Positions 3,676 to 49,643 of a stretch of DNA of 50,192 bases are shown here, piece after piece. This stretch comes from a phage. Both the position numbers and the translations under genes were made by a program. How positions within the stretch are numbered: the first letter of the stretch is position 1; each line of letters starts with the position of its first letter. The stretch lies in sequence record PZ445416.1. One strand, written 5' to 3'. A model generated the notes under the pieces. The model was not told the origin of the DNA. It ran no database searches and saw only the letters and a program-made list of their open reading frames with translations.

Positions 3676-4788
3676 ATGAAGGCAAAGCAAAGATTCGATT
3701 CAGTAAAAATCAAGGCTCACTTTGATGATAACGGTTTTTTAGTTGACCGCCCAATCGTGGCGCGAATCGGCGCTCAGGTTTACAAAACGCCGCACGGCGA
3801 TCGAGTTGAGTTCCGTCCGGCATCCGAAGTTTTCAAGCAAGATTCCTTGCAAAGTTTTGCAGGCAAGCCGATCACAGTCGGTCACGTAACGGTGACACCC
3901 CAAAATGCTAAGGACGTTGTTGTCGGATCGTGTGCTGGCGCTGGTATTGCTTCAGGGGTTGGCGTTGAAGTTCCTTTGAGTATTTACAGCGACTACGCGA
4001 TCAGCAAAGCTAAAGCGAAGGAGGCCGGGGAATTATCTGTAGGGTATACGTCGGTAGATATTGATAAGCCAGGCTGGGGTTCAAATGAGACTGGAGAATA
4101 TATCTTCGAAGAGGATATGAAACAGGACGAAGCGCCGCCTGAAGGTTGGGTGAAATTCGACGCGGTACAGACTAATATCAAGGTCAACCATATTGCCCTA
4201 GTTTTTAAAGGTCGTGCGGGAATTGCTAAATTAAATCTTGATGCCGAACAGGAGTTCCCGTATGATAATAACGTTCAATTAACTAACGAGGACAAGCAAA
4301 TGAAAAAAATTAAGATCGACTCAGTTGATGTGGAAGTAACCGAAGACGTTGCGAACCATATCGAAAAATTAACCGCGCAGATTGCCACCATTCAGGGGAA
4401 AGCTGATGGCTTCGAAGCTGAGCGCGATGCGCTGAAGGTTAAGGTTGACTCTCTGCCGGAACTTGTGAAGGCCGAGGTAGAGAAGCAAAAAGCCGATGCC
4501 GCCGCACGCGCAGAAGTTACCGCAGTAGCAGAAACCGCAGGCGTCAAACATGATGGTCTTGATATCAAAGACGTCAAGATTGCCGTAGTTAAAGCCATGC
4601 TTGATAAAGATGTTAGTGAAAAATCAGACGCATATATCGACGCTATGTTTGATGTTGCTAAAGATTCTGATATCATGGCTATTCAGCGTAAAGCAGTAAA
4701 AGGCGACTCTATCGAAGGCGGTAAGCCGGAAGAGAAAAACGACGCCGCGCCTGTTACGCCAAATTCACGTTTAAGCAAAGTAATGTAA
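3676..4788 (+). CDS. putative scaffolding / prohead protein
   Basis: Start at MKAKQRF after GGAG; C-terminal half is Lys/Glu/Ala-rich and coiled-coil-like (KAEVEKQKADAAARAEVTAVAE); position before capsid genes. Confidence 0.55.
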   Translation: MKAKQRFDSVKIKAHFDDNGFLVDRPIVARIGAQVYKTPHGDRVEFRPASEVFKQDSLQSFAGKPITVGHVTVTPQNAKDVVVGSCAGAGIASGVGVEVPLSIYSDYAISKAKAKEAGELSVGYTSVDIDKPGWGSNETGEYIFEEDMKQDEAPPEGWVKFDAVQTNIKVNHIALVFKGRAGIAKLNLDAEQEFPYDNNVQLTNEDKQMKKIKIDSVDVEVTEDVANHIEKLTAQIATIQGKADGFEAERDALKVKVDSLPELVKAEVEKQKADAAARAEVTAVAETAGVKHDGLDIKDVKIAVVKAMLDKDVSEKSDAYIDAMFDVAKDSDIMAIQRKAVKGDSIEGGKPEEKNDAAPVTPNSRLSKVM

Positions 4789-4799
4789 GGGGAAATATC

Positions 4800-5276
4800 A
4801 TGGCACAAATTAATGCATCTTATCAGCGAGATATGGCGATTGCGCTTCCGGGTATGGTTGCGGATACTTCAAAGTACAATATTGACGGCGCTTGTGTCGT
4901 TAATGAAGGTGATGTTCTTGTTGGCGCTGCCGTACAGGTCGTTCAAGCTCAGGCGGTTGATGGTCATAAGTTGGTTAAGGCTCTTACTACCGGAACCACT
5001 CCTTACGGCGTGGCAATCCGATCTCACTGGCAGACTGTTAACGCTCAAAATCAGATGGTTTACGAAGATGGCGGCGCTATCAACGTGATGACTTCAGGCC
5101 GAGTATGGATGCTTTCCAAATCCACCGAAGCACCAACTTTCGGCTCTGCCGTTAAACTTGATGTTGATGGTCAGGAAAAATCTGATGGCACGATCGAAAC
5201 AACCTGGACCTACGCTGGCGGTTGGACTAAATACAAAGATATTCAGCTTGTTGAGGTTCAGTTGCATCAACTGTAA
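4800..5276 (+). CDS. capsid-associated protein, paralog A (decoration-like)
   Basis: 158 aa; shares the motifs YNIDGACV, GAAVQVV and GTTPYG with the downstream ORF. Confidence 0.5.
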   Translation: MAQINASYQRDMAIALPGMVADTSKYNIDGACVVNEGDVLVGAAVQVVQAQAVDGHKLVKALTTGTTPYGVAIRSHWQTVNAQNQMVYEDGGAINVMTSGRVWMLSKSTEAPTFGSAVKLDVDGQEKSDGTIETTWTYAGGWTKYKDIQLVEVQLHQL

Positions 5277-5337: not shown

Positions 5338-6105
5338 ATGGCTTACGAAAATTTAATGTTGCGCCCGGCGTGTCCGGGAAATCTTTCTGATACTTCAACC
5401 TACAATATTGATGGCGCTTGCGTGGCTCAAGGTGACATTGAGTTCGGCGCGGCGGTTCAGGTTGTCGGCATCGTTGATGGTGTAAAAGTCGTCAAAGTAC
5501 TTTCTGATGGCGGGACTCCTTACGGTATCGCTTTCCGTTCTCAATATGAACACCTGAGCGGTAAAATTCTCGACGGCGAAGTTTGCAACGTCGTTTCTCA
5601 CGGTCGCATGTGGGCGCTTACTTCTCTTGATGAGGCTCCCGGCTTGTTCTCAAAGTTGCAGTTTGGATCTGGTGGAGTTGTTACTGGTGGGTCTGGTTCC
5701 GCAGGATGGACCTTTGCTGGCGGCTTTGTTAAGCACGAAGACGGGCACATTATTGAGGTTCAGGTGAAACAAAATGCTTTCATCGTTCCACCGCCGCCGC
5801 CCCCTGTTGTTCTTGTTGAGTCCGCTACAATCACCACTGACAAGGAAAGTCCTCAACCAAACAATGTTACGATCCAGTGTGTAGCTAATGCTCTTCCGGC
5901 TAATGCAACCGATAAGACTGGTAAATGGTCAATCGACGCTACCAATATCGCCACTGTCGATCCGGACTCAGGTCTTGTAACTCCCGTTGGTGGAGAGGTA
6001 GTCGGTGATTTCAATATTACCTGGACGGCTAACGATGCCAGCAAGACGACGGCAACCATTGCTTATCGCGTAGAAGCAGTGCCAACGCCAGAGGTTGATG
6101 CATAA
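5338..6105 (+). CDS. capsid-associated protein, paralog B with C-terminal Ig-like extension
   Basis: 255 aa; N-terminal 150 aa paralogous to 4800-5276, then a PPPPPP linker and a beta-rich domain resembling bacterial Ig-like (Big_2) folds. Confidence 0.5.
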   Translation: MAYENLMLRPACPGNLSDTSTYNIDGACVAQGDIEFGAAVQVVGIVDGVKVVKVLSDGGTPYGIAFRSQYEHLSGKILDGEVCNVVSHGRMWALTSLDEAPGLFSKLQFGSGGVVTGGSGSAGWTFAGGFVKHEDGHIIEVQVKQNAFIVPPPPPPVVLVESATITTDKESPQPNNVTIQCVANALPANATDKTGKWSIDATNIATVDPDSGLVTPVGGEVVGDFNITWTANDASKTTATIAYRVEAVPTPEVDA

Positions 6106-6126
6106 CATAAAAACACTTTGACGCTT

Positions 6127-6141
6127 TAACAAAAAGTGCTA
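6127..6141 (-). promoter_or_regulatory. isolated Box-A site (reverse orientation) before major capsid gene
   Basis: Minus strand TAGCACTTTTTGTTA between paralog B stop and terminator 6150-6177; no -10 at the cassette position. Confidence 0.45.
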
Positions 6142-6149
6142 TTATTGAA

Positions 6150-6177
6150 GCCGTGAACATAATCACGGCTTTTTTAT
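6150..6177 (+). terminator. rho-independent terminator
   Basis: GCCGTGA, loop ACATAA, TCACGGC, then TTTTTTATT. Confidence 0.7.
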
Positions 6178-6196
6178 TAACTACGGAGAAGTAATC

Positions 6197-7156
6197 ATGA
6201 CTACTAAAAAATTTGATGAAGCAGATAAAAGCAATGTTGAAATGTATCTGATCCAGGCTGGCGTAAAACAGGATGCAGCCGCAACGATGGGTATCTGGAC
6301 CGCTCAGGAACTACACCGCATCAAAAGCCAGTCCTATGAAGAAGACTACCCGGTAGGATCAGCTTTACGCGTATTCCCGGTTACAACCGATCTTTCTCCG
6401 ACTGATAAGACGTTTGAATACATGACCTTTGATAAGGTTGGTACTGCTCAGATTATCGCAGACTACACCGACGATCTTCCGCTGGTTGATGCCCTGGGTA
6501 CTTCTGAATTTGGCAAGGTGTTCCGTCTTGGTAACGCGTACCTGATCTCAATCGACGAAATCAAAGCGGGTCAGGCAACTGGTCGACCGTTATCGAACCG
6601 TAAGGCAAATGCGTGCCAGTTGGCGCATGATCAGCTTGTTAACCGCCTGGTGTTCAAAGGTTCCGCGCCGCACAAGATTGTGTCCGTGTTCAACCATCCG
6701 AACATCACCAAAATTACCTCTGGTAAATGGATTGATGTATCGACCATGAAGCCGGAAACTGCGGAAGCTGAGTTAACTCAGGCGATCGAAACCATCGAGA
6801 CGATTACTCGTGGTCAGCACCGCGCAACCAACATCCTGATCCCGCCTTCCATGCGTAAGGTTTTGGCGATTCGTATGCCTGAGACAACCATGTCTTACCT
6901 GGACTATTTTAAGTCTCAGAACTCCGGTATCGAAATCGACTCTATCGCAGAACTTGAGGATATTGACGGAGCAGGAACCAAAGGCGTACTGGTGTATGAA
7001 AAGAATCCGATGAACATGTCCATCGAGATCCCGGAAGCATTTAACATGCTGCCAGCACAACCGAAAGACTTGCACTTTAAAGTGCCTTGCACCTCTAAGT
7101 GTACTGGTCTTACAATTTATCGCCCGATGACTATTGTCTTAATCACTGGCGTGTAA
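6197..7156 (+). CDS. major capsid protein
   Basis: 319 aa, strong RBS, flanked by rho-independent terminators on both sides (high-expression unit), position after scaffold and decoration genes. Confidence 0.7.
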   Translation: MTTKKFDEADKSNVEMYLIQAGVKQDAAATMGIWTAQELHRIKSQSYEEDYPVGSALRVFPVTTDLSPTDKTFEYMTFDKVGTAQIIADYTDDLPLVDALGTSEFGKVFRLGNAYLISIDEIKAGQATGRPLSNRKANACQLAHDQLVNRLVFKGSAPHKIVSVFNHPNITKITSGKWIDVSTMKPETAEAELTQAIETIETITRGQHRATNILIPPSMRKVLAIRMPETTMSYLDYFKSQNSGIEIDSIAELEDIDGAGTKGVLVYEKNPMNMSIEIPEAFNMLPAQPKDLHFKVPCTSKCTGLTIYRPMTIVLITGV

Positions 7157-7537: not shown

Positions 7538-7948
7538 ATGAATCAAGAAGCTTTAATTGCAGTTGTTGAGCAAATGCGAAAGCTGGTTCCGGCACTTCGT
7601 AAGGCTCCAGACGAAACGCTTTATGCGTGGGTAGAAATGGCTGAGCTATTTGTATGCCAGAAGACCTTTAAAGATGCATACGTCAAGGCGCTTGCTCTTT
7701 ATGCATTGCACCTTGCTTTCCTTGATGGGGCGCTAAAAGGTGAAGATGAGGATCTTGAATCGTACTCACGACGCGTTACGTCATTCTCCCTGAGCGGTGA
7801 ATTTAGCCAGACTTTCGGAGAGGTGACGAAGAACCAGTCAGGAAACATGATGCTTTCGACGCCGTGGGGTAAGATGTTCGAACAGCTTAAGGCGCGACGA
7901 CGTGGTCGATTCGCATTAATGACAGGACTCCGTGGAGGATGCCACTAA
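7538..7948 (+). CDS. putative head-tail connector/adaptor
   Basis: 136 aa, located between capsid and tail genes; function assigned by synteny only. Confidence 0.45.
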   Translation: MNQEALIAVVEQMRKLVPALRKAPDETLYAWVEMAELFVCQKTFKDAYVKALALYALHLAFLDGALKGEDEDLESYSRRVTSFSLSGEFSQTFGEVTKNQSGNMMLSTPWGKMFEQLKARRRGRFALMTGLRGGCH

Positions 7949-34419: not shown

Positions 34420-34462
34420 AATATACCCGATACGAGATCGGGTGTTTTAACAAAAAGTGCTA
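34420..34462 (-). promoter_or_regulatory. Box-A cassette (minus strand)
   Basis: Minus strand TAGCACTTTTTGTTA, 22 bp with IR CCCGAT/ATCGGG, TATATT, leader CATCGAAACGAAACGA. Confidence 0.6.
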
Positions 34463-34571
34463 TTTGTACCTTTTTACGTGAAGTAGCAACTCCCCCTCCT
34501 GGTCGCAAAGATTATGCTCGCTTTCGTTACTAGCCCTCATTGAAGTGAGTAACAGACTCAACAACCCTTGC

Positions 34572-38713: not shown

Positions 38714-38756
38714 ACTATACCAGCCATCCTTGATGCGCGTTTAGCAATTTGTGCTA
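38714..38756 (-). promoter_or_regulatory. Box-A cassette (minus strand)
   Basis: Minus strand TAGCACAAATTGCTA, 22 bp, TGgTATAGT, IR GGATG/CATCC. Confidence 0.6.
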
Positions 38757-39092
38757 TTAAGCAATATCGAACTCAGCGGCGTACGCTTCTTTGAAGCCAG
38801 CTTCACGCATGGTGCGCTTACTGATTTTGCGCGGGAATTTGTACTGGCTGTTAGGCATCACCCACCAGAAGCAAGCTGTCTCGCGAACGATTTCATATTT
38901 ACCGTAACGAGTGAAGGTGTCGCGCTCCATGTCAGGCTGGTTAACACAGGTCAGGAATTTAACTTCCTTGTCTTCAGTTTTGATTTCTTCCCAAACGAAG
39001 GAGTCCATTCCGTTAACCTTGCAAGCAACCATGATGTACTCAAAGCCGTTTTCGATTTTGATGATTTCGTTACCGCGATTTTCGTATTTCAT
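38757..39092 (-). CDS. hypothetical protein
   Basis: 111 aa, RBS CAGGAG, downstream of Box-A cassette 39131-39173. Confidence 0.5.
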   Translation of the reverse strand: MKYENRGNEIIKIENGFEYIMVACKVNGMDSFVWEEIKTEDKEVKFLTCVNQPDMERDTFTRYGKYEIVRETACFWWVMPNSQYKFPRKISKRTMREAGFKEAYAAEFDIA

Positions 39093-41070: not shown

Positions 41071-41316
41071 ATGAGTATGAGCAAGATTAAGCATGACGCC
41101 CTGAAAGGTATCTTGATGCGACTAAACCCAGGCGAAGCATTCCAGCTTAACCCCGAGACGTTTGGATTCAATGGTGATTATCGTACAACCTTCGAATTTG
41201 TAAGGTATGTAAAGAAAGAGTTTGGATTCGAAGTTATTCACGCAGGTCTTATCAATGGCATCCAGACATTCATCTTTAAGCCAAATGAGATTCGTTGCTT
41301 CACGATGATGAAATAG
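41071..41316 (+). CDS. hypothetical protein
   Basis: 81 aa, RBS AAGGAGAG; its stop TAG is the first triplet of Box A at 41314. Confidence 0.5.
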   Translation: MSMSKIKHDALKGILMRLNPGEAFQLNPETFGFNGDYRTTFEFVRYVKKEFGFEVIHAGLINGIQTFIFKPNEIRCFTMMK

Positions 41317-41356
41317 CACTTTTTGTTAAAGCCCGGTCGAGCGGATCGGGTATTAT
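41314..41356 (+). promoter_or_regulatory. Box-A cassette
   Basis: TAGCACTTTTTGTTA, 22 bp, TATTAT, leader CATCGACACGATACAGAGGA. Confidence 0.6.
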
Positions 41357-46510: not shown

Positions 46511-47122
46511 ATGGATAAAATTACCATTTGGGGACAGACAATCAACCTGTTTCTCGGCACGCGCCGCGTAGCAATCTTTGACTTTGATGGAACACTTAGC
46601 GATGGATCTGGTCGACTTCACCTGCTACCTACAAAGGATTTGCAATTAACTGAAAGCTGGTCCGAGTTTAACCGCGCGGCAATATTTGATAACCCAATCA
46701 AGAGTACGATTGAAGTGATGAACTCTATGTTTGCCGCTGGGTATCATGTGATCATTTTAACCGGGCGAAGTGATGAGGTGCGTTACGCATCTGAGTTATG
46801 GCTTAAGCATCACGGCGCTCGATATGATTACTTAGTCATGCGACCGCATACCGACAACCGCAAAGACACGGTAATGAAAGAAGAGGCAGTGCGCGCGATC
46901 GGCATTGAGAACATTCTGGCGGCCTGGGATGACTCACCGCAAATTATTCCATTATTCCGCTCGCTTGGAATAACAACTTACGCTGTAGTTGACTATGGCG
47001 ATAACGTTCACAATCATTTAAAATCTCACGGGGTAGATGAGGTTTGCAATCATGAACCATCTGAGCCGCTACCGCCATTTGGTGAGAAAATTTGCATTAA
47101 GTGCAAGGAGTTATTGAAGTGA
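46511..47122 (+). CDS. HAD-family phosphatase (polynucleotide 3'-phosphatase-like)
   Basis: N-terminal DxDGT motif (IFDFDGTL) typical of HAD phosphatases such as the T4 Pnkp phosphatase domain; C-terminal CxxC pair. Confidence 0.65.
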   Translation: MDKITIWGQTINLFLGTRRVAIFDFDGTLSDGSGRLHLLPTKDLQLTESWSEFNRAAIFDNPIKSTIEVMNSMFAAGYHVIILTGRSDEVRYASELWLKHHGARYDYLVMRPHTDNRKDTVMKEEAVRAIGIENILAAWDDSPQIIPLFRSLGITTYAVVDYGDNVHNHLKSHGVDEVCNHEPSEPLPPFGEKICIKCKELLK

Positions 47123-47230
47123 ACCTATACGAATTTATTGCATCGCACCCGGTATTGACGGTTATCATTCTGCTAATCATCAATCACACTATCATCAATG
47201 TGGCAAAATTATTTTTAGGGAGATGCTAAC

Positions 47231-47803
47231 ATGAAAACAGCTATCATTTTAAACGGCGCACCTGGTGCGGGAAAGGACACTATCGGATGCATCCTGGCTG
47301 ACACTTACGATCACGTAGCGCTACGCAGCTTCAAAGCGCCAATGTTTGAGATTGCCCGAGCAATCCTGGGTGAGACTAATTTCGAGTATTTCATGTTCTT
47401 GTACGAGGACCGTCGCTATAAAGAAGAGCCAACATCAATCCTGAACGGTAAAAGCCCACGCCAGTTCATGATCTGGATTAGCGAGGAGGTCATCAAGCCG
47501 CAGTTCGGAAATCGCTTCTTCGGTATGCGAGCGGAAAGCAAGGTGAAAGAGTCGCACTCCCTTTCGGTATTTACTGACGGTGGATTCAAAGATGAGATCC
47601 TACAAATGATTGAAGGTGATATCCAGGTTAAGCTATGTCGAATCCATCGCAACGGTTGCAGCTTTGATAACGACAGCCGAGACTATATCTATCTTGACGA
47701 TATGATCGGGGTCAACGGTTATCAGGAATGTGACTTCTTTTCTGTCGAAGGCCATCCAGAAATTACCGCTCAGCACATAGCCGCCACGTTCATCAACAAA
47801 TAG
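47231..47803 (+). CDS. P-loop kinase (polynucleotide 5'-kinase / nucleotide kinase-like)
   Basis: Walker A LNGAPGAGKDT at residues 7-17; 190 aa; adjacent to the HAD phosphatase gene. Confidence 0.6.
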   Translation: MKTAIILNGAPGAGKDTIGCILADTYDHVALRSFKAPMFEIARAILGETNFEYFMFLYEDRRYKEEPTSILNGKSPRQFMIWISEEVIKPQFGNRFFGMRAESKVKESHSLSVFTDGGFKDEILQMIEGDIQVKLCRIHRNGCSFDNDSRDYIYLDDMIGVNGYQECDFFSVEGHPEITAQHIAATFINK

Positions 47804-47843
47804 CACGAATTGCTAAAACTTCGGTGGGGTGATTTGATATAGT
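47801..47843 (+). promoter_or_regulatory. Box-A cassette
   Basis: TAGCACGAATTGCTA (TAG is the kinase stop), 22 bp, TGaTATAGT, leader CATCGACAACGAAGAGAG. Confidence 0.6.
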
Positions 47844-48405: not shown

Positions 48406-48635
48406 TGTTCGGTTTAAGCGAAGCGGAGTGGAACGTAGTAAAGCGTGCAGCTAAGGAATTAAACAAATTCGTCAGTGGAATGAAGAAAGAAGATCGTAAA
48501 AACGACAAGATCATGATTGACGTGATTTCGACTCACCACAAAAAGGTCGAGCTACTCATTGACCGATACAAATTTGTCTGGACTGCCGGGTATATTGCTG
48601 GGCGCGTAGGGAACAAAGAAGGGGATTACGAATAA
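48405..48635 (+). CDS. hypothetical protein
   Basis: 76 aa, start overlaps upstream stop. Confidence 0.5.
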   Translation: MFGLSEAEWNVVKRAAKELNKFVSGMKKEDRKNDKIMIDVISTHHKKVELLIDRYKFVWTAGYIAGRVGNKEGDYE

Positions 48636-48838
48636 TGGCTAACTTACCGAAGAAAGGCGAGCAGGTTCGATGTGTCACTTCACGCAATAGCGATGCTTTC
48701 TCAGCAGGGTGCGCGTACGATGTGGAAAAGGTTAGTAAATCAAAGAGATTGGTATTCGTATACGGCGATGATGGAAACCTGCACGAGATTGATTACCCGC
48801 AGGATATGACTAAGGGGCAATTCGAAATTAATGATTGA
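48635..48838 (+). CDS. hypothetical protein
   Basis: 67 aa, start overlaps upstream stop. Confidence 0.5.
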   Translation: MANLPKKGEQVRCVTSRNSDAFSAGCAYDVEKVSKSKRLVFVYGDDGNLHEIDYPQDMTKGQFEIND

Positions 48839-48864
48839 CCTAAATCCCTGAGCGGTGATAGTAT
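48835..48864 (+). promoter_or_regulatory. sigma70-type promoter with extended -10
   Basis: TTGACC (48835-48840), 18-bp spacer including TG, TAGTAT (48859-48864); followed by a ~135-nt structured untranslated region. Confidence 0.45.
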
Positions 48865-49002
48865 TAATCCCGTAGATAGACGAGGCGCAACTAAGCGCAA
48901 CGCGTGAGACGATTCTCACACTTCCAGCTAACAAGCTCGGTTGCATAGTGGTTAAGCAACGCCGCAGACCCGTAAGCGGCAACAATTCAAGAGGATTGCA
49001 TA

Positions 49003-49164
49003 ATGCAAAAAACTAAAGACGAATCAGTCAAAATTGAAATTAAAGTAACTCGCAACGGTGAAACCACTCGTTATAAAAAACGATTAAATCCTGGCGAGGC
49101 TGTTATTGGTCGCATTGCTGGCGTTATGATTAAGGCGCAGGAAGATGAAGCGATTCAAAGTTAA
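49003..49164 (+). CDS. small hypothetical protein (53 aa)
   Basis: ORF MQKTKDESVKIEIKVTRNGE... with RBS AAGAGGA; absent from the supplied track. Confidence 0.4.
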   Translation: MQKTKDESVKIEIKVTRNGETTRYKKRLNPGEAVIGRIAGVMIKAQEDEAIQS

Positions 49165-49330
49165 ATTAATTATTCGAAAGATGGGAATGTTTTGCCAGTC
49201 TTGCAAGCAATCTTTCGAAACTGAATTATCAGCAACCAGTCAGGCAGAAGCCATCACGAAAGCAAAAAAACTTTCCGGCGCTAACCTTGACACTCACAAA
49301 ATAAATATTGAATTAATCAAGGAGATTTAA
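49145..49330 (+). CDS. hypothetical protein
   Basis: 61 aa with CQSC motif; start uncertain (49145 overlaps previous ORF; alternative ATG at 49181). Confidence 0.35.
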   Translation: MKRFKVKLIIRKMGMFCQSCKQSFETELSATSQAEAITKAKKLSGANLDTHKINIELIKEI

Positions 49331-49331
49331 C

Positions 49332-49559
49332 ATGACAATTTTTTTATTGATTATCGCTGGTGTTGTTATTTTTGGTGCTGGTTTGTTTGCTGGCTTCGCA
49401 CTTGTTGCGGCAGCAATTGCGATGGACGCTAAGGATAAAACTGGTGTATGGCTGACATACTCGCCTAAGAAGGATCAATGGGAAATGACTGGCGACCTTG
49501 CTCACTGCTACTCTAAAGCTCAGACCCACCCTAAAGGCATTAAACGACGATTGTCGTGA
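49332..49559 (+). CDS. small membrane protein
   Basis: RBS AAGGAGA; N-terminal TM helix IFLLIIAGVVIFGAGLFAGFALVAAAI; followed by terminator. Confidence 0.5.
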   Translation: MTIFLLIIAGVVIFGAGLFAGFALVAAAIAMDAKDKTGVWLTYSPKKDQWEMTGDLAHCYSKAQTHPKGIKRRLS

Positions 49560-49569
49560 TAAACACTAA

Positions 49570-49590
49570 CCCGCTCCGGCGGGTTTTTTT
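49570..49590 (+). terminator. rho-independent terminator before TerS
   Basis: CCCGCTCCGGCGGG hairpin then TTTTTTT. Confidence 0.75.
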
Positions 49591-49610
49591 ATGCCTGCAA
49601 TATGGTAAAA

Positions 49611-49625
49611 TAGCACTAAATGTTA
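49611..49625 (+). promoter_or_regulatory. isolated Box-A site over the TerS leader
   Basis: TAGCACTAAATGTTA immediately downstream of extended -10-like TGgTAAAAT (49603-49611) and 18 nt before the TerS ATG. Confidence 0.5.
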
Positions 49626-49643
49626 AACAGAGAGGATGTATTT

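Follow-up and report, generated by a model that had tools for sequence, protein, structure and literature searches.

A predicted structured RNA leader ahead of the small terminase gene, shared by the Drexlerviridae genera tested

The leader and the unit that it heads

The window analyzed here is the whole stretch of phage DNA in record PZ445416.1, 50,192 nucleotides long. By blastn its last 1.9 kb is 93-98% identical to Tunavirus genomes, which identifies the source as a T1-like phage (Tunavirus); DELF2 (97.8%), IME18 (96.0%), and phage T1 (95.4%) are among these genomes. A non-coding gap at 48839-49002 separates T1 orf58 (48635-48838, stop at 48838) from orf57 (ATG at 49003). In T1 coordinates the gap is 7591-7754, and there the curated T1 record has the ribosome-binding site of orf57 as its sole annotation. 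The features in and around this gap are as follows.

48835-48864, plus strand: sigma-70 promoter with -35 TTGACC (48835-40), an 18-nt spacer, TG (48856-57), and -10 TAGTAT (48859-64)
48872-48884, plus strand: predicted transcription start G48872, placed by spacing and the pyrimidine(-1)/purine(+1) rule, and conserved 5' tail GUAGAUAGACGAG
48885-48898, plus strand: hairpin P1, GCGC-AACUAA-GCGC (stem 48885-88/48895-98), covariation at 4/4 pairs
48904-48919, plus strand: hairpin P2, GUGAGA-CGAU-UCUCAC (stem 48904-09/48914-19), covariation at 6/6 pairs
48926-48937, plus strand: small stem P3, AGCU-AACA-AGCU (stem 48926-29/48934-37), from the minimum-energy fold, weak and lineage-specific
48940-48960, plus strand: hairpin P4, GUUGC-AUAGUGGUUAA-GCAAC (stem 48940-44/48956-60), nine paired stem variants
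48961-48980, plus strand: hairpin P5, GCCGC-AGACCCGUAA-GCGGC (stem 48961-65/48976-80), ten paired stem variants
48981-48988, plus strand: 3' boundary AACAAUUC, with AUUC conserved; in tRNA-bearing relatives a tRNA begins 0-3 nt later
48989-49164, plus strand: ribosome-binding site AAGAGGA (48989-95) and orf57, 53 aa (49003-49164), the first gene of the unit
49145-49559, plus strand: orf56 (61 aa, KMGMFCQSC motif) and orf55 (75 aa, with a single membrane-spanning segment), which the unit carries as conserved cargo
49568-49592, plus strand: strong intrinsic terminator, AACCCGC-TCCG-GCGGGTT followed by T7, which closes the unit about 55 nt before terS

An earlier note, made from the letters of the window, had proposed the promoter (TTGACC, 18 bp, TGaTAGTAT), and it is present as described there. 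The scan tool scored it 9/12 with TG, and the consensus TTGAC-N16-TGnTAnnAT has a single zero-mismatch match in the 50-kb window, the one at 48835. Its -35 overlaps the TGA stop of orf58 and its spacer contains a family-conserved CTGAnnnGGT. All 26 aligned relatives keep the promoter, with TTGAC in 24 and TTGCA in two, and a TAnnnT -10 at 17-18 nt in every case. The promoter table of the TLS re-annotation lists P01, P51, and P57 only, none of them near terS (PMC11447400).

The predicted start, G48872, lies 8 nt past the -10 and is preceded by a C. A C-G step 6-7 nt after the -10 is conserved across the family alignments, and we infer that it marks positions -1/+1. The 5' tail that follows has the family consensus CGUnnACnnAnnAG (alignment A5, the 26-relative alignment). 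The untranslated part is about 117-131 nt long; counted from G48872 to the ATG it is 131 nt, close to the 135 nt given in the earlier note, a figure that depends on the start site.

The same note counted at least four stem-loops in the non-coding stretch. P1, P2, P4, and P5 are all there, with the weak P3 as an additional fifth, and all five stems appear in the minimum-energy fold. The folding energy is mildly unusual (z = -1.5 to -2.25; at z = -2.0 to -2.25, 5-7 of 200 shuffles fold equally well), so thermodynamics alone is insufficient and the case for a structure beyond chance rests on comparative data. P1 is flanked by a conserved AG upstream and a conserved AACG downstream, and the P2 loop has the family consensus (G)CGAU(A). 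P3 is not conserved, being broken in DELF2 and missing or replaced in other genera. P4 is preceded by a conserved UCG and has the loop consensus AUWGUGRWAA, while the P5 loop ends in the family-conserved CCGUAA. In the window P5 is followed by AACAAUUCAAG, which has no U-run.

Downstream, orf57 belongs to PHROG 6666, listed by PHROGs with function unknown. Genes like orf56 also follow the leader in EcL1, NJS2, and L226. Neither orf56 nor orf57 has an informative family or fold match in Pfam, PHROGs, or single-sequence structure models, and a PDB fold search with orf56 gave a best E of 0.1 and no functional clue. A strong terminator equivalent to that at 49568-49592 is found 60-90 nt upstream of terS in 15 of the 15 lineages checked, indicating that the unit of promoter, leader, optional tRNAs, small genes, and terminator is conserved. 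The gap next to terS has its own extended -10-like sequence, TGGTAAAAT, together with a copy of a genome-wide repeat.

Distribution and covariation in the Drexlerviridae

A blastn search with the 211-nt region returned 72 phage records, including SRT8 and IME-JL8 (75% identity), plus a group of partial matches. One of the latter, LF82-10, has the same plan built from other stems (P2 is GCATCA/TGATGC) and a genuine tRNA-Ser directly after it. Copies from Vilniusvirus, Eclunavirus, and Badaguanvirus were added through pattern scans of viral contigs and BLAST. BLAST with four lineage versions, among whose matches is the Klebsiella genus Webervirus, gave 72, 130, 348, and 48 records, about 600 deposited genomes with some overlap.

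We built a covariance model, R1, from 19 sequences and ran it on loci located through a small-terminase alignment and on representative genomes. It gave one match per evaluable Drexlerviridae locus, on the terS strand and 500-900 nt upstream of terS, with E from 1e-42 to 1e-4. The exception was L223, in which R1 scored the P4-P5 part only (E = 2) and a diverged promoter and core were recognized by eye. The element was found in all 13 genera tested: Tunavirus, Sertoctavirus, Badaguanvirus, Vilniusvirus, Eclunavirus, Webervirus, Warwickvirus, Hanrivervirus, Tlsvirus, Kyungwonvirus, Guelphvirus, Rogunavirus, and Nouzillyvirus. The universal core comprises the promoter, the conserved 5' tail, P1, and P2. 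A second model restricted to the core, R2, finds one copy in the window (E = 2e-16, the second-best match being at 0.3) and also matches a Guelphvirus-like 'Pseudomonas' phage. R2 did not find the element in Xanthomonas phage DIBBI, which shares the terminase only. Family-specific models, the kind of search that the earlier note had proposed as a check, therefore find one copy upstream of terS per genome across 13 genera. Unrelated viral DNA totaling 0.92 Mb gave no covariance-model match below E = 0.1. Most of these negative controls were 80 chance loci from a loose motif scan; the loose motif GAGGCGC-N3-8-GCGCAAC gave chance matches only in viral contigs.

To test P1 and P2, the first 60 nt of 31 diverse members were aligned with MAFFT without reference to structure. 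Across their ten pairs, 86.9% of cells are paired; in controls with the 3' partner shifted by 1-3 columns the figure is 18-45%. All ten pairs show double-sided changes. The covariation score is 0.651, compared with at most 0.12 in the shifted controls, and none of 500 shuffles attains it. P1 alone has both sides changed at 4/4 pairs with 94.8% of cells paired. All six P2 pairs have changed on both sides, as in GUGAGA/UCUCAC (T1), GCAUCA/UGAUGC (LF82-10), and GCAGCA/UGCUGC (NBD2), with the innermost pair unpaired in 22 of the 31 sequences.

The 3' domain with P4 and P5 was parsed by rule, MAFFT being unable to align it structurally. P4 occurs in nine stem versions with 39/39 positions paired, and exchanging partners between versions gives full complementarity in 2 of 72 combinations. 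The corresponding values for P5 are ten versions, 50/50 positions, and 7 of 90 combinations. When P4 or P5 strands are swapped between phages, 48-62% of positions pair. For P5 an intermediate is seen as well: L232 has G-C, TH27 has G·A, and p111 has U-A. The earlier note had named loss of the stems in relatives as evidence against its reading; the stems are kept, with compensatory changes across Drexlerviridae.

A 3-bp pseudoknot is tentatively proposed between the CGG just before P4 and the CCG in the P5 loop. One compensatory case is seen, in phiKP26 and phiJLA23, where CCG would pair with CGG, and the putative pairing resembles a GG:CC helix nested within the terminator-type hairpins of other lineages.

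Among 15 Tunavirus genomes the leader has a mean pairwise identity of 0.967, the highest of the segments compared; 16 of its 124 columns vary, and the variation is concentrated in the P1 loop. In the same genomes the flanking reading frames have identities of 0.86-0.94 and the gap between the terminator and terS 0.955.

By sequence comparison, the leader is a new covariation-supported RNA motif, unannotated and shared by 13 of the 13 Drexlerviridae genera tested. We are highly confident that 48835-49002 is the T1-type copy of a non-coding module found throughout the family, in which a strong host-type promoter is followed by a folded RNA that appears to be under purifying selection as single-stranded RNA, and which heads the unit of leader, orf57, orf56, orf55, and terminator before terS.

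Known RNA families and other readings of the sequence were searched as well. None of the 4227 models of Rfam 15 matched the window at the gathering threshold; with E up to 10, the region 48780-49060 gave one chance snoRNA match of 14 bits and none to the tRNA model. On ten related loci Rfam found genuine tRNAs only, and ARAGORN predicted no tRNA gene in the window. A search for a host homologue found no similar DNA in 5,426 complete E. coli genomes, and our literature search found no T1 or Drexlerviridae transcriptome or non-coding RNA study. The sole candidate for a leader peptide, a 14-codon GUG frame, has no ribosome-binding site and is absent in SRT8. An antisense frame of 81 aa (48740-48985, minus strand) is not credible, because the length of the element differs between relatives by non-multiples of three. 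Judged by eye only, K-turn, ops/RfaH, and rrn boxA readings do not fit the family-wide consensus.

Lineage-specific 3' ends and possible release of the leader

Beyond the core, the element ends differently by lineage. In the first form, found in Tunavirinae, Eclunavirus, and Tlsvirus, a gene comes directly after it: UCG-P4-P5 with the CCGUAA-ended P5 loop is followed by AUUC and a ribosome-binding site. In the second, found in Vilniusvirus, Rogunavirus, Guelphvirus, and relatives, the UCG-P4-P5 domain is followed by tRNA genes within 0-3 nt. A tRNA directly after the element is seen at at least nine loci, with identities that include Ser-GCU, Arg-CCU, Arg-UCU, and Trp, and with up to six tRNAs per contig.

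The third form is terminator-like, lacks P4, and occurs in Hanrivervirus, Warwickvirus, and several uncultivated lineages. Its last hairpin has an 8-9-bp G+C-rich stem and a large loop ending in CCGUAAGA, followed by a U-rich run and, a few nucleotides on, the ribosome-binding site; in Hanrivervirus and Warwickvirus the counterpart of P5 is a 9-bp stem and then the U-run. Such a terminator-like last hairpin was seen in nine lineages. The combination of hairpin and U-run expected of an intrinsic terminator or attenuator is thus missing in the window and present in nine related lineages; likewise, an Hfq-type 3' end (terminator hairpin plus U-tail) is absent in the window and present in the Hanrivervirus and Warwickvirus relatives. 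In leaders of the terminator type we saw no antiterminator pairing that was conserved. The Webervirus element consists of the 5' tail, P1, and P2 only and runs straight into the ribosome-binding site.

As tRNAs intervene in many lineages and the identity of the first gene differs, translational control or stabilization of one particular message can hardly be what the leaders have in common. Two of the 3' contexts would yield a free RNA. In Hanrivervirus and Warwickvirus, termination at the last hairpin would produce a transcript of about 100 nt, with the genes expressed by read-through only; the U-run hairpin adjoins the ribosome-binding site in this form, leaving no room for a further promoter. 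In Vilniusvirus, Rogunavirus, and Guelphvirus the tRNA begins 0-3 nt after the element, so cleavage by RNase P at the tRNA would free the leader. In T1, release would need an endonuclease cut, which may fall at the conserved single-stranded AAUUC. A target RNA or protein would be contacted through the conserved 5' tail.

A free RNA would be expected in the tRNA-bearing and terminator-like forms, and the latter also have the layout of an attenuator, so we favor release as a small RNA or attenuator over the alternatives below. That the leader comes away from the message that follows, to act as a small RNA in its own right and also as an attenuator, is a tentative proposal that we would not call probable; taken as a whole, a family-wide module with release of this kind is the best explanation we have, plausible and still short of probable. 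The earlier note's suggestion of a regulatory leader or small RNA gains support from the promoter and hairpin covariation seen family-wide and from the terminator-like or tRNA-abutting ends in some lineages. Three points speak against the small-RNA reading. P5 in the window has neither a U-run nor a tRNA after it, and a discrete RNA would presumably need a processing step there. The Webervirus element looks like a plain 5' UTR. The phage genome yields no convincing target of the 5' tail, as duplex scans and reverse-complement searches returned only the trivial antisense match.

Alternative explanations and known systems

By analogy with phage HK022, the nascent P1-P2 RNA might bind its own RNA polymerase and make it resistant to terminators, allowing read-through into the packaging and head genes. 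The put RNA of HK022 is a cis-acting antiterminator RNA that needs no protein. Like put, the T1-type leader places a two-hairpin RNA close to the promoter, keeps structure over stem sequence, and has terminators downstream. The polymerase would have to pass the terS-proximal terminator and, in Hanrivervirus and Warwickvirus, the terminator of the leader itself. The universal part of the element is a promoter-proximal pair of covarying hairpins, P1 and P2 lying 13-48 nt from the predicted start, and a strong terminator stands downstream of the element, 60-90 nt before terS, in every lineage checked. Such a mechanism would tolerate the intervening tRNAs and differing genes that are seen. The 2024 re-annotation of TLS, with three sigma-70 promoters versus 21 terminators, is also in its favor (PMC11447400).

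We nevertheless consider antitermination of this kind, the main rival to release of the leader, rather unlikely. The leader has no sequence or model similarity to put and no similarity to known antiterminator RNAs generally, and it carries an additional 5' tail and 3' domain. Its P1 and P2 stems are short, at 4-6 bp; put stems are larger, and the difference is considerable. The extended -10-like sequence and the repeat near terS count against it too, since with its own -10-like sequence terS may not need read-through. Any transcript that comes in from upstream would also carry P1-P2, which would leave the leader terminator without obvious purpose. We regard it as unlikely that P1-P2 represents a new class of cis-acting RNAs, one that would reprogram host RNA polymerase without a phage protein, carry it past the conserved terminators into the terminase and morphogenesis genes, and provide the missing early-to-late switch of T1-like phages.

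Alternatively, a protein of the phage or the host could bind the leader and control the unit in cis, with the leader serving as an attenuator or as a translational operator of orf57 and orf56. Recognition would be through the repeated GUAAGA/CCGUAA-type motifs and possibly through the CTGAnnnGGT of the promoter spacer. Consistent with this, conserved single-stranded motifs lie beside helices (UAAGAG before P1, CCGUAAG(A) in the last hairpin), and the spacer is conserved beyond what sigma-70 needs. In T1 folds a local hairpin, CAAUUC/GGAUUG, can cover the ribosome-binding site, but this pairing is not conserved in SRT8, EcL1, or Webervirus. A riboswitch-type alternative pairing was rejected on the same grounds and would be irrelevant where a tRNA comes next. 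With a first gene that differs by lineage and tRNAs often in between, translational control of one gene is not the common function, and no candidate RNA-binding protein was found, orf56 and orf57 having no informative match. We judge control by a bound protein to be unlikely.

A function of the DNA itself, as the pac site for the small terminase or as a hairpin signal for replication or priming, is very improbable. The earlier note had raised a packaging site, given the distance of 650 nt to terS, and most relatives have a direct repeat of a CCGYAGAC-like sequence here. Covariation alone cannot tell RNA hairpins from those of single-stranded DNA, and an attempt at strand assignment from wobble-type cells (seven G-U vs five A-C) is not decisive. 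The sequence CCGYAGAC is not enriched in the genome, however, with five matches versus 1.8 expected. Stem sequences and loop lengths vary freely between close relatives, which a sequence-specific DNA-binding protein would not tolerate and which fits single-strand hairpins rather than a DNA-binding site. The element is also fused to a conserved promoter, and in several lineages a U-run or tRNA follows on the same strand. For the relative SU57, the authors placed the genome start at a physical end deduced from read frequency, within an untranslated region before many small genes (PMC7718038). The SU57 terS is at 5919-6392 of the record, about 5.9 kb downstream of that end, and the element would lie about 0.7 kb before terS; T1 and TLS records number their genes as SU57 does. 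An end that maps several kb upstream of the element makes a pac site here unlikely. The packaging alternative thus has the covarying hairpins, the promoter and RNA 3'-end features, and the SU57 mapping against it.

That P4-P5 is a decayed tRNA gene from an ancestral cluster, conserved by linkage and without a function of its own, is largely refuted and has very little probability left: the P4 loop AUAGUGGUUAA is similar to the D-loop of a tRNA, P4 and P5 lie side by side as a D-arm and an anticodon arm do, real tRNA genes stand at exactly this spot in many relatives, and one blastn match is labeled 'tRNA-Ser', but neither ARAGORN nor the Rfam tRNA model detects a tRNA, the P5 loop of 8-10 nt has no U33-type signature, and P4 and P5 covary and are fully paired across genera as a decaying pseudogene would not be. 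The 'tRNA-Ser' label comes from a 9-nt overlap with the neighboring gene, the homologous part lying upstream of that tRNA.

Besides put, three known systems invite comparison. The lambda late leader (PR', 6S RNA, tR', Q) also has a constitutive host-type promoter and a short untranslated transcript ahead of a block of small genes, terminase, and morphogenesis genes. The terminator-ended transcript of about 100 nt has its counterpart here in Hanrivervirus and Warwickvirus only, and the conserved promoter spacer is as might be expected of a factor-binding site. The conserved secondary structure that lambda 6S RNA needs is the terminator only, whereas in the T1 family hairpins P1 and P2 covary; no Q-like protein is known or was found, and the T1 leader has no terminator.

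Several small RNAs are known to be released by tRNA-processing enzymes, among them P1 C4, P4 CI, E. coli 3'ETS-leuZ and RtT, and the stable RNAs of the T4 tRNA region. Among the relatives with tRNAs, the element likewise forms the 5' leader of a tRNA precursor, from which RNase P would free 130-200 nt. The leader differs in that it matches no C4, RtT, or other Rfam family, and T1 itself has no tRNA. In the Salmonella prophage Gifsy-1, one promoter yields IsrK as a short terminated regulator RNA together with a long read-through mRNA (PMC4825925). The T1-family leader would have a similar one-promoter layout; the two are not homologous and IsrK is a prophage element.

The module is the single non-coding element shared by every Drexlerviridae genus tested, and it marks the precise site at which these phages gain and lose tRNA genes. 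To our knowledge, put and EAR are the RNA antiterminator kinds known so far; if the put-like reading were true, the P1-P2 core would be a third. A leader acting either as an RNA antiterminator or as a host-directed small RNA would represent a new mechanism for a family of virulent phages. T1 itself belongs to the seven classical T phages. The 2024 re-annotation of TLS lists open questions on T1-like phages (PMC11447400), and the module offers a concrete handle on T1 regulation and a motif that may be used for Rfam-type annotation.

The leader and its boundaries

The conserved AUUC that closes the leader, the promoter and hairpin-rich non-coding element upstream of the small terminase gene terS, is a tRNA gene hotspot. 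The tRNA genes start 0-3 nt past this end, and their identities vary by genus: Ser, Arg-CCU, Arg-UCU, Trp, or a cluster of six tRNAs. None of the terminator-type leaders, the Hanrivervirus/Warwickvirus-like form with a last hairpin and a U-rich run, has a tRNA gene after it. Among the sites in related phages, each in the coordinates of its own record, are:

1666, tRNA site at the AUUC end in L033
2208, the same in L217
2280, the same in L232
1976, the same in L235
1820-2467, the same in L223

Within the promoter spacer (48841-48858 in the window, and its counterpart in relatives), the motif CTGAnnnGGT is conserved across genera despite the spacer being non-coding. As this conservation exceeds what sigma-70 needs, the motif may bind a regulator and is a candidate site for one.

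One Tunavirus record alone, L052 (Shigella phage vB_SsoS_008, MK335533), has clustered substitutions in the leader region (4728-4853). Besides disrupting the P2 and P5 hairpins, they garble the beginning of orf57, the gene that follows the leader. An error in sequencing or assembly, or a naturally degenerate copy, could account for them.

An antisense frame also crosses the last part of orf58, the preceding gene, and the leader itself:

48740-48985, minus strand, 81-aa ORF with a TTG start

This frame is almost certainly spurious, because the length of the element differs among relatives by non-multiples of three.

A repeated 19-nt motif

The direct repeat AATAGCACnnnWTGnTAAA, already described in phage TLS (PMC11447400), has 25 copies in the window against 0.33 expected, all oriented with local transcription. 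The leader (48835-49002) has no copy. Examples are:

41312-41330, 47799-47817 and 49609-49627, plus strand
34446-34464 and 38740-38758, minus strand

Most copies are trailed about 20 nt downstream by a TATAGT-like -10 and then by an ACCnCATC-like sequence, an arrangement of motifs that suggests a second class of promoter without a -35. Other copies, among them the one before terS, immediately precede a start codon.

Neighboring genes and the terminator before terS

In T1 an HNH endonuclease gene (5465-5959) separates the gene for polynucleotide kinase from that for deoxynucleotide kinase. The endonuclease gene seems to be absent from the window, as the two kinase genes (46511-47803) are merely ~110 nt apart with no ORF of that size between them.

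Two of the features between the leader and terS are:

49145-49330, orf56, small conserved protein with a (K/L)MGxxCxxC motif
49568-49592, strong terminator, AACCCGC-tetraloop-GCGGGTT then T7-8

The orf56 motif is similar to the loop through which heavy-metal-associated domains bind metal, with a Pfam HMA match (E = 0.002) that falls short of the family cut-off. A single-sequence structure model is beta-beta-alpha-beta (pLDDT 78) and had no significant match in the PDB. All lineages checked, the window and 14 others, have a nearly identical terminator 60-90 nt upstream of terS; the packaging and head genes are therefore always behind a terminator.
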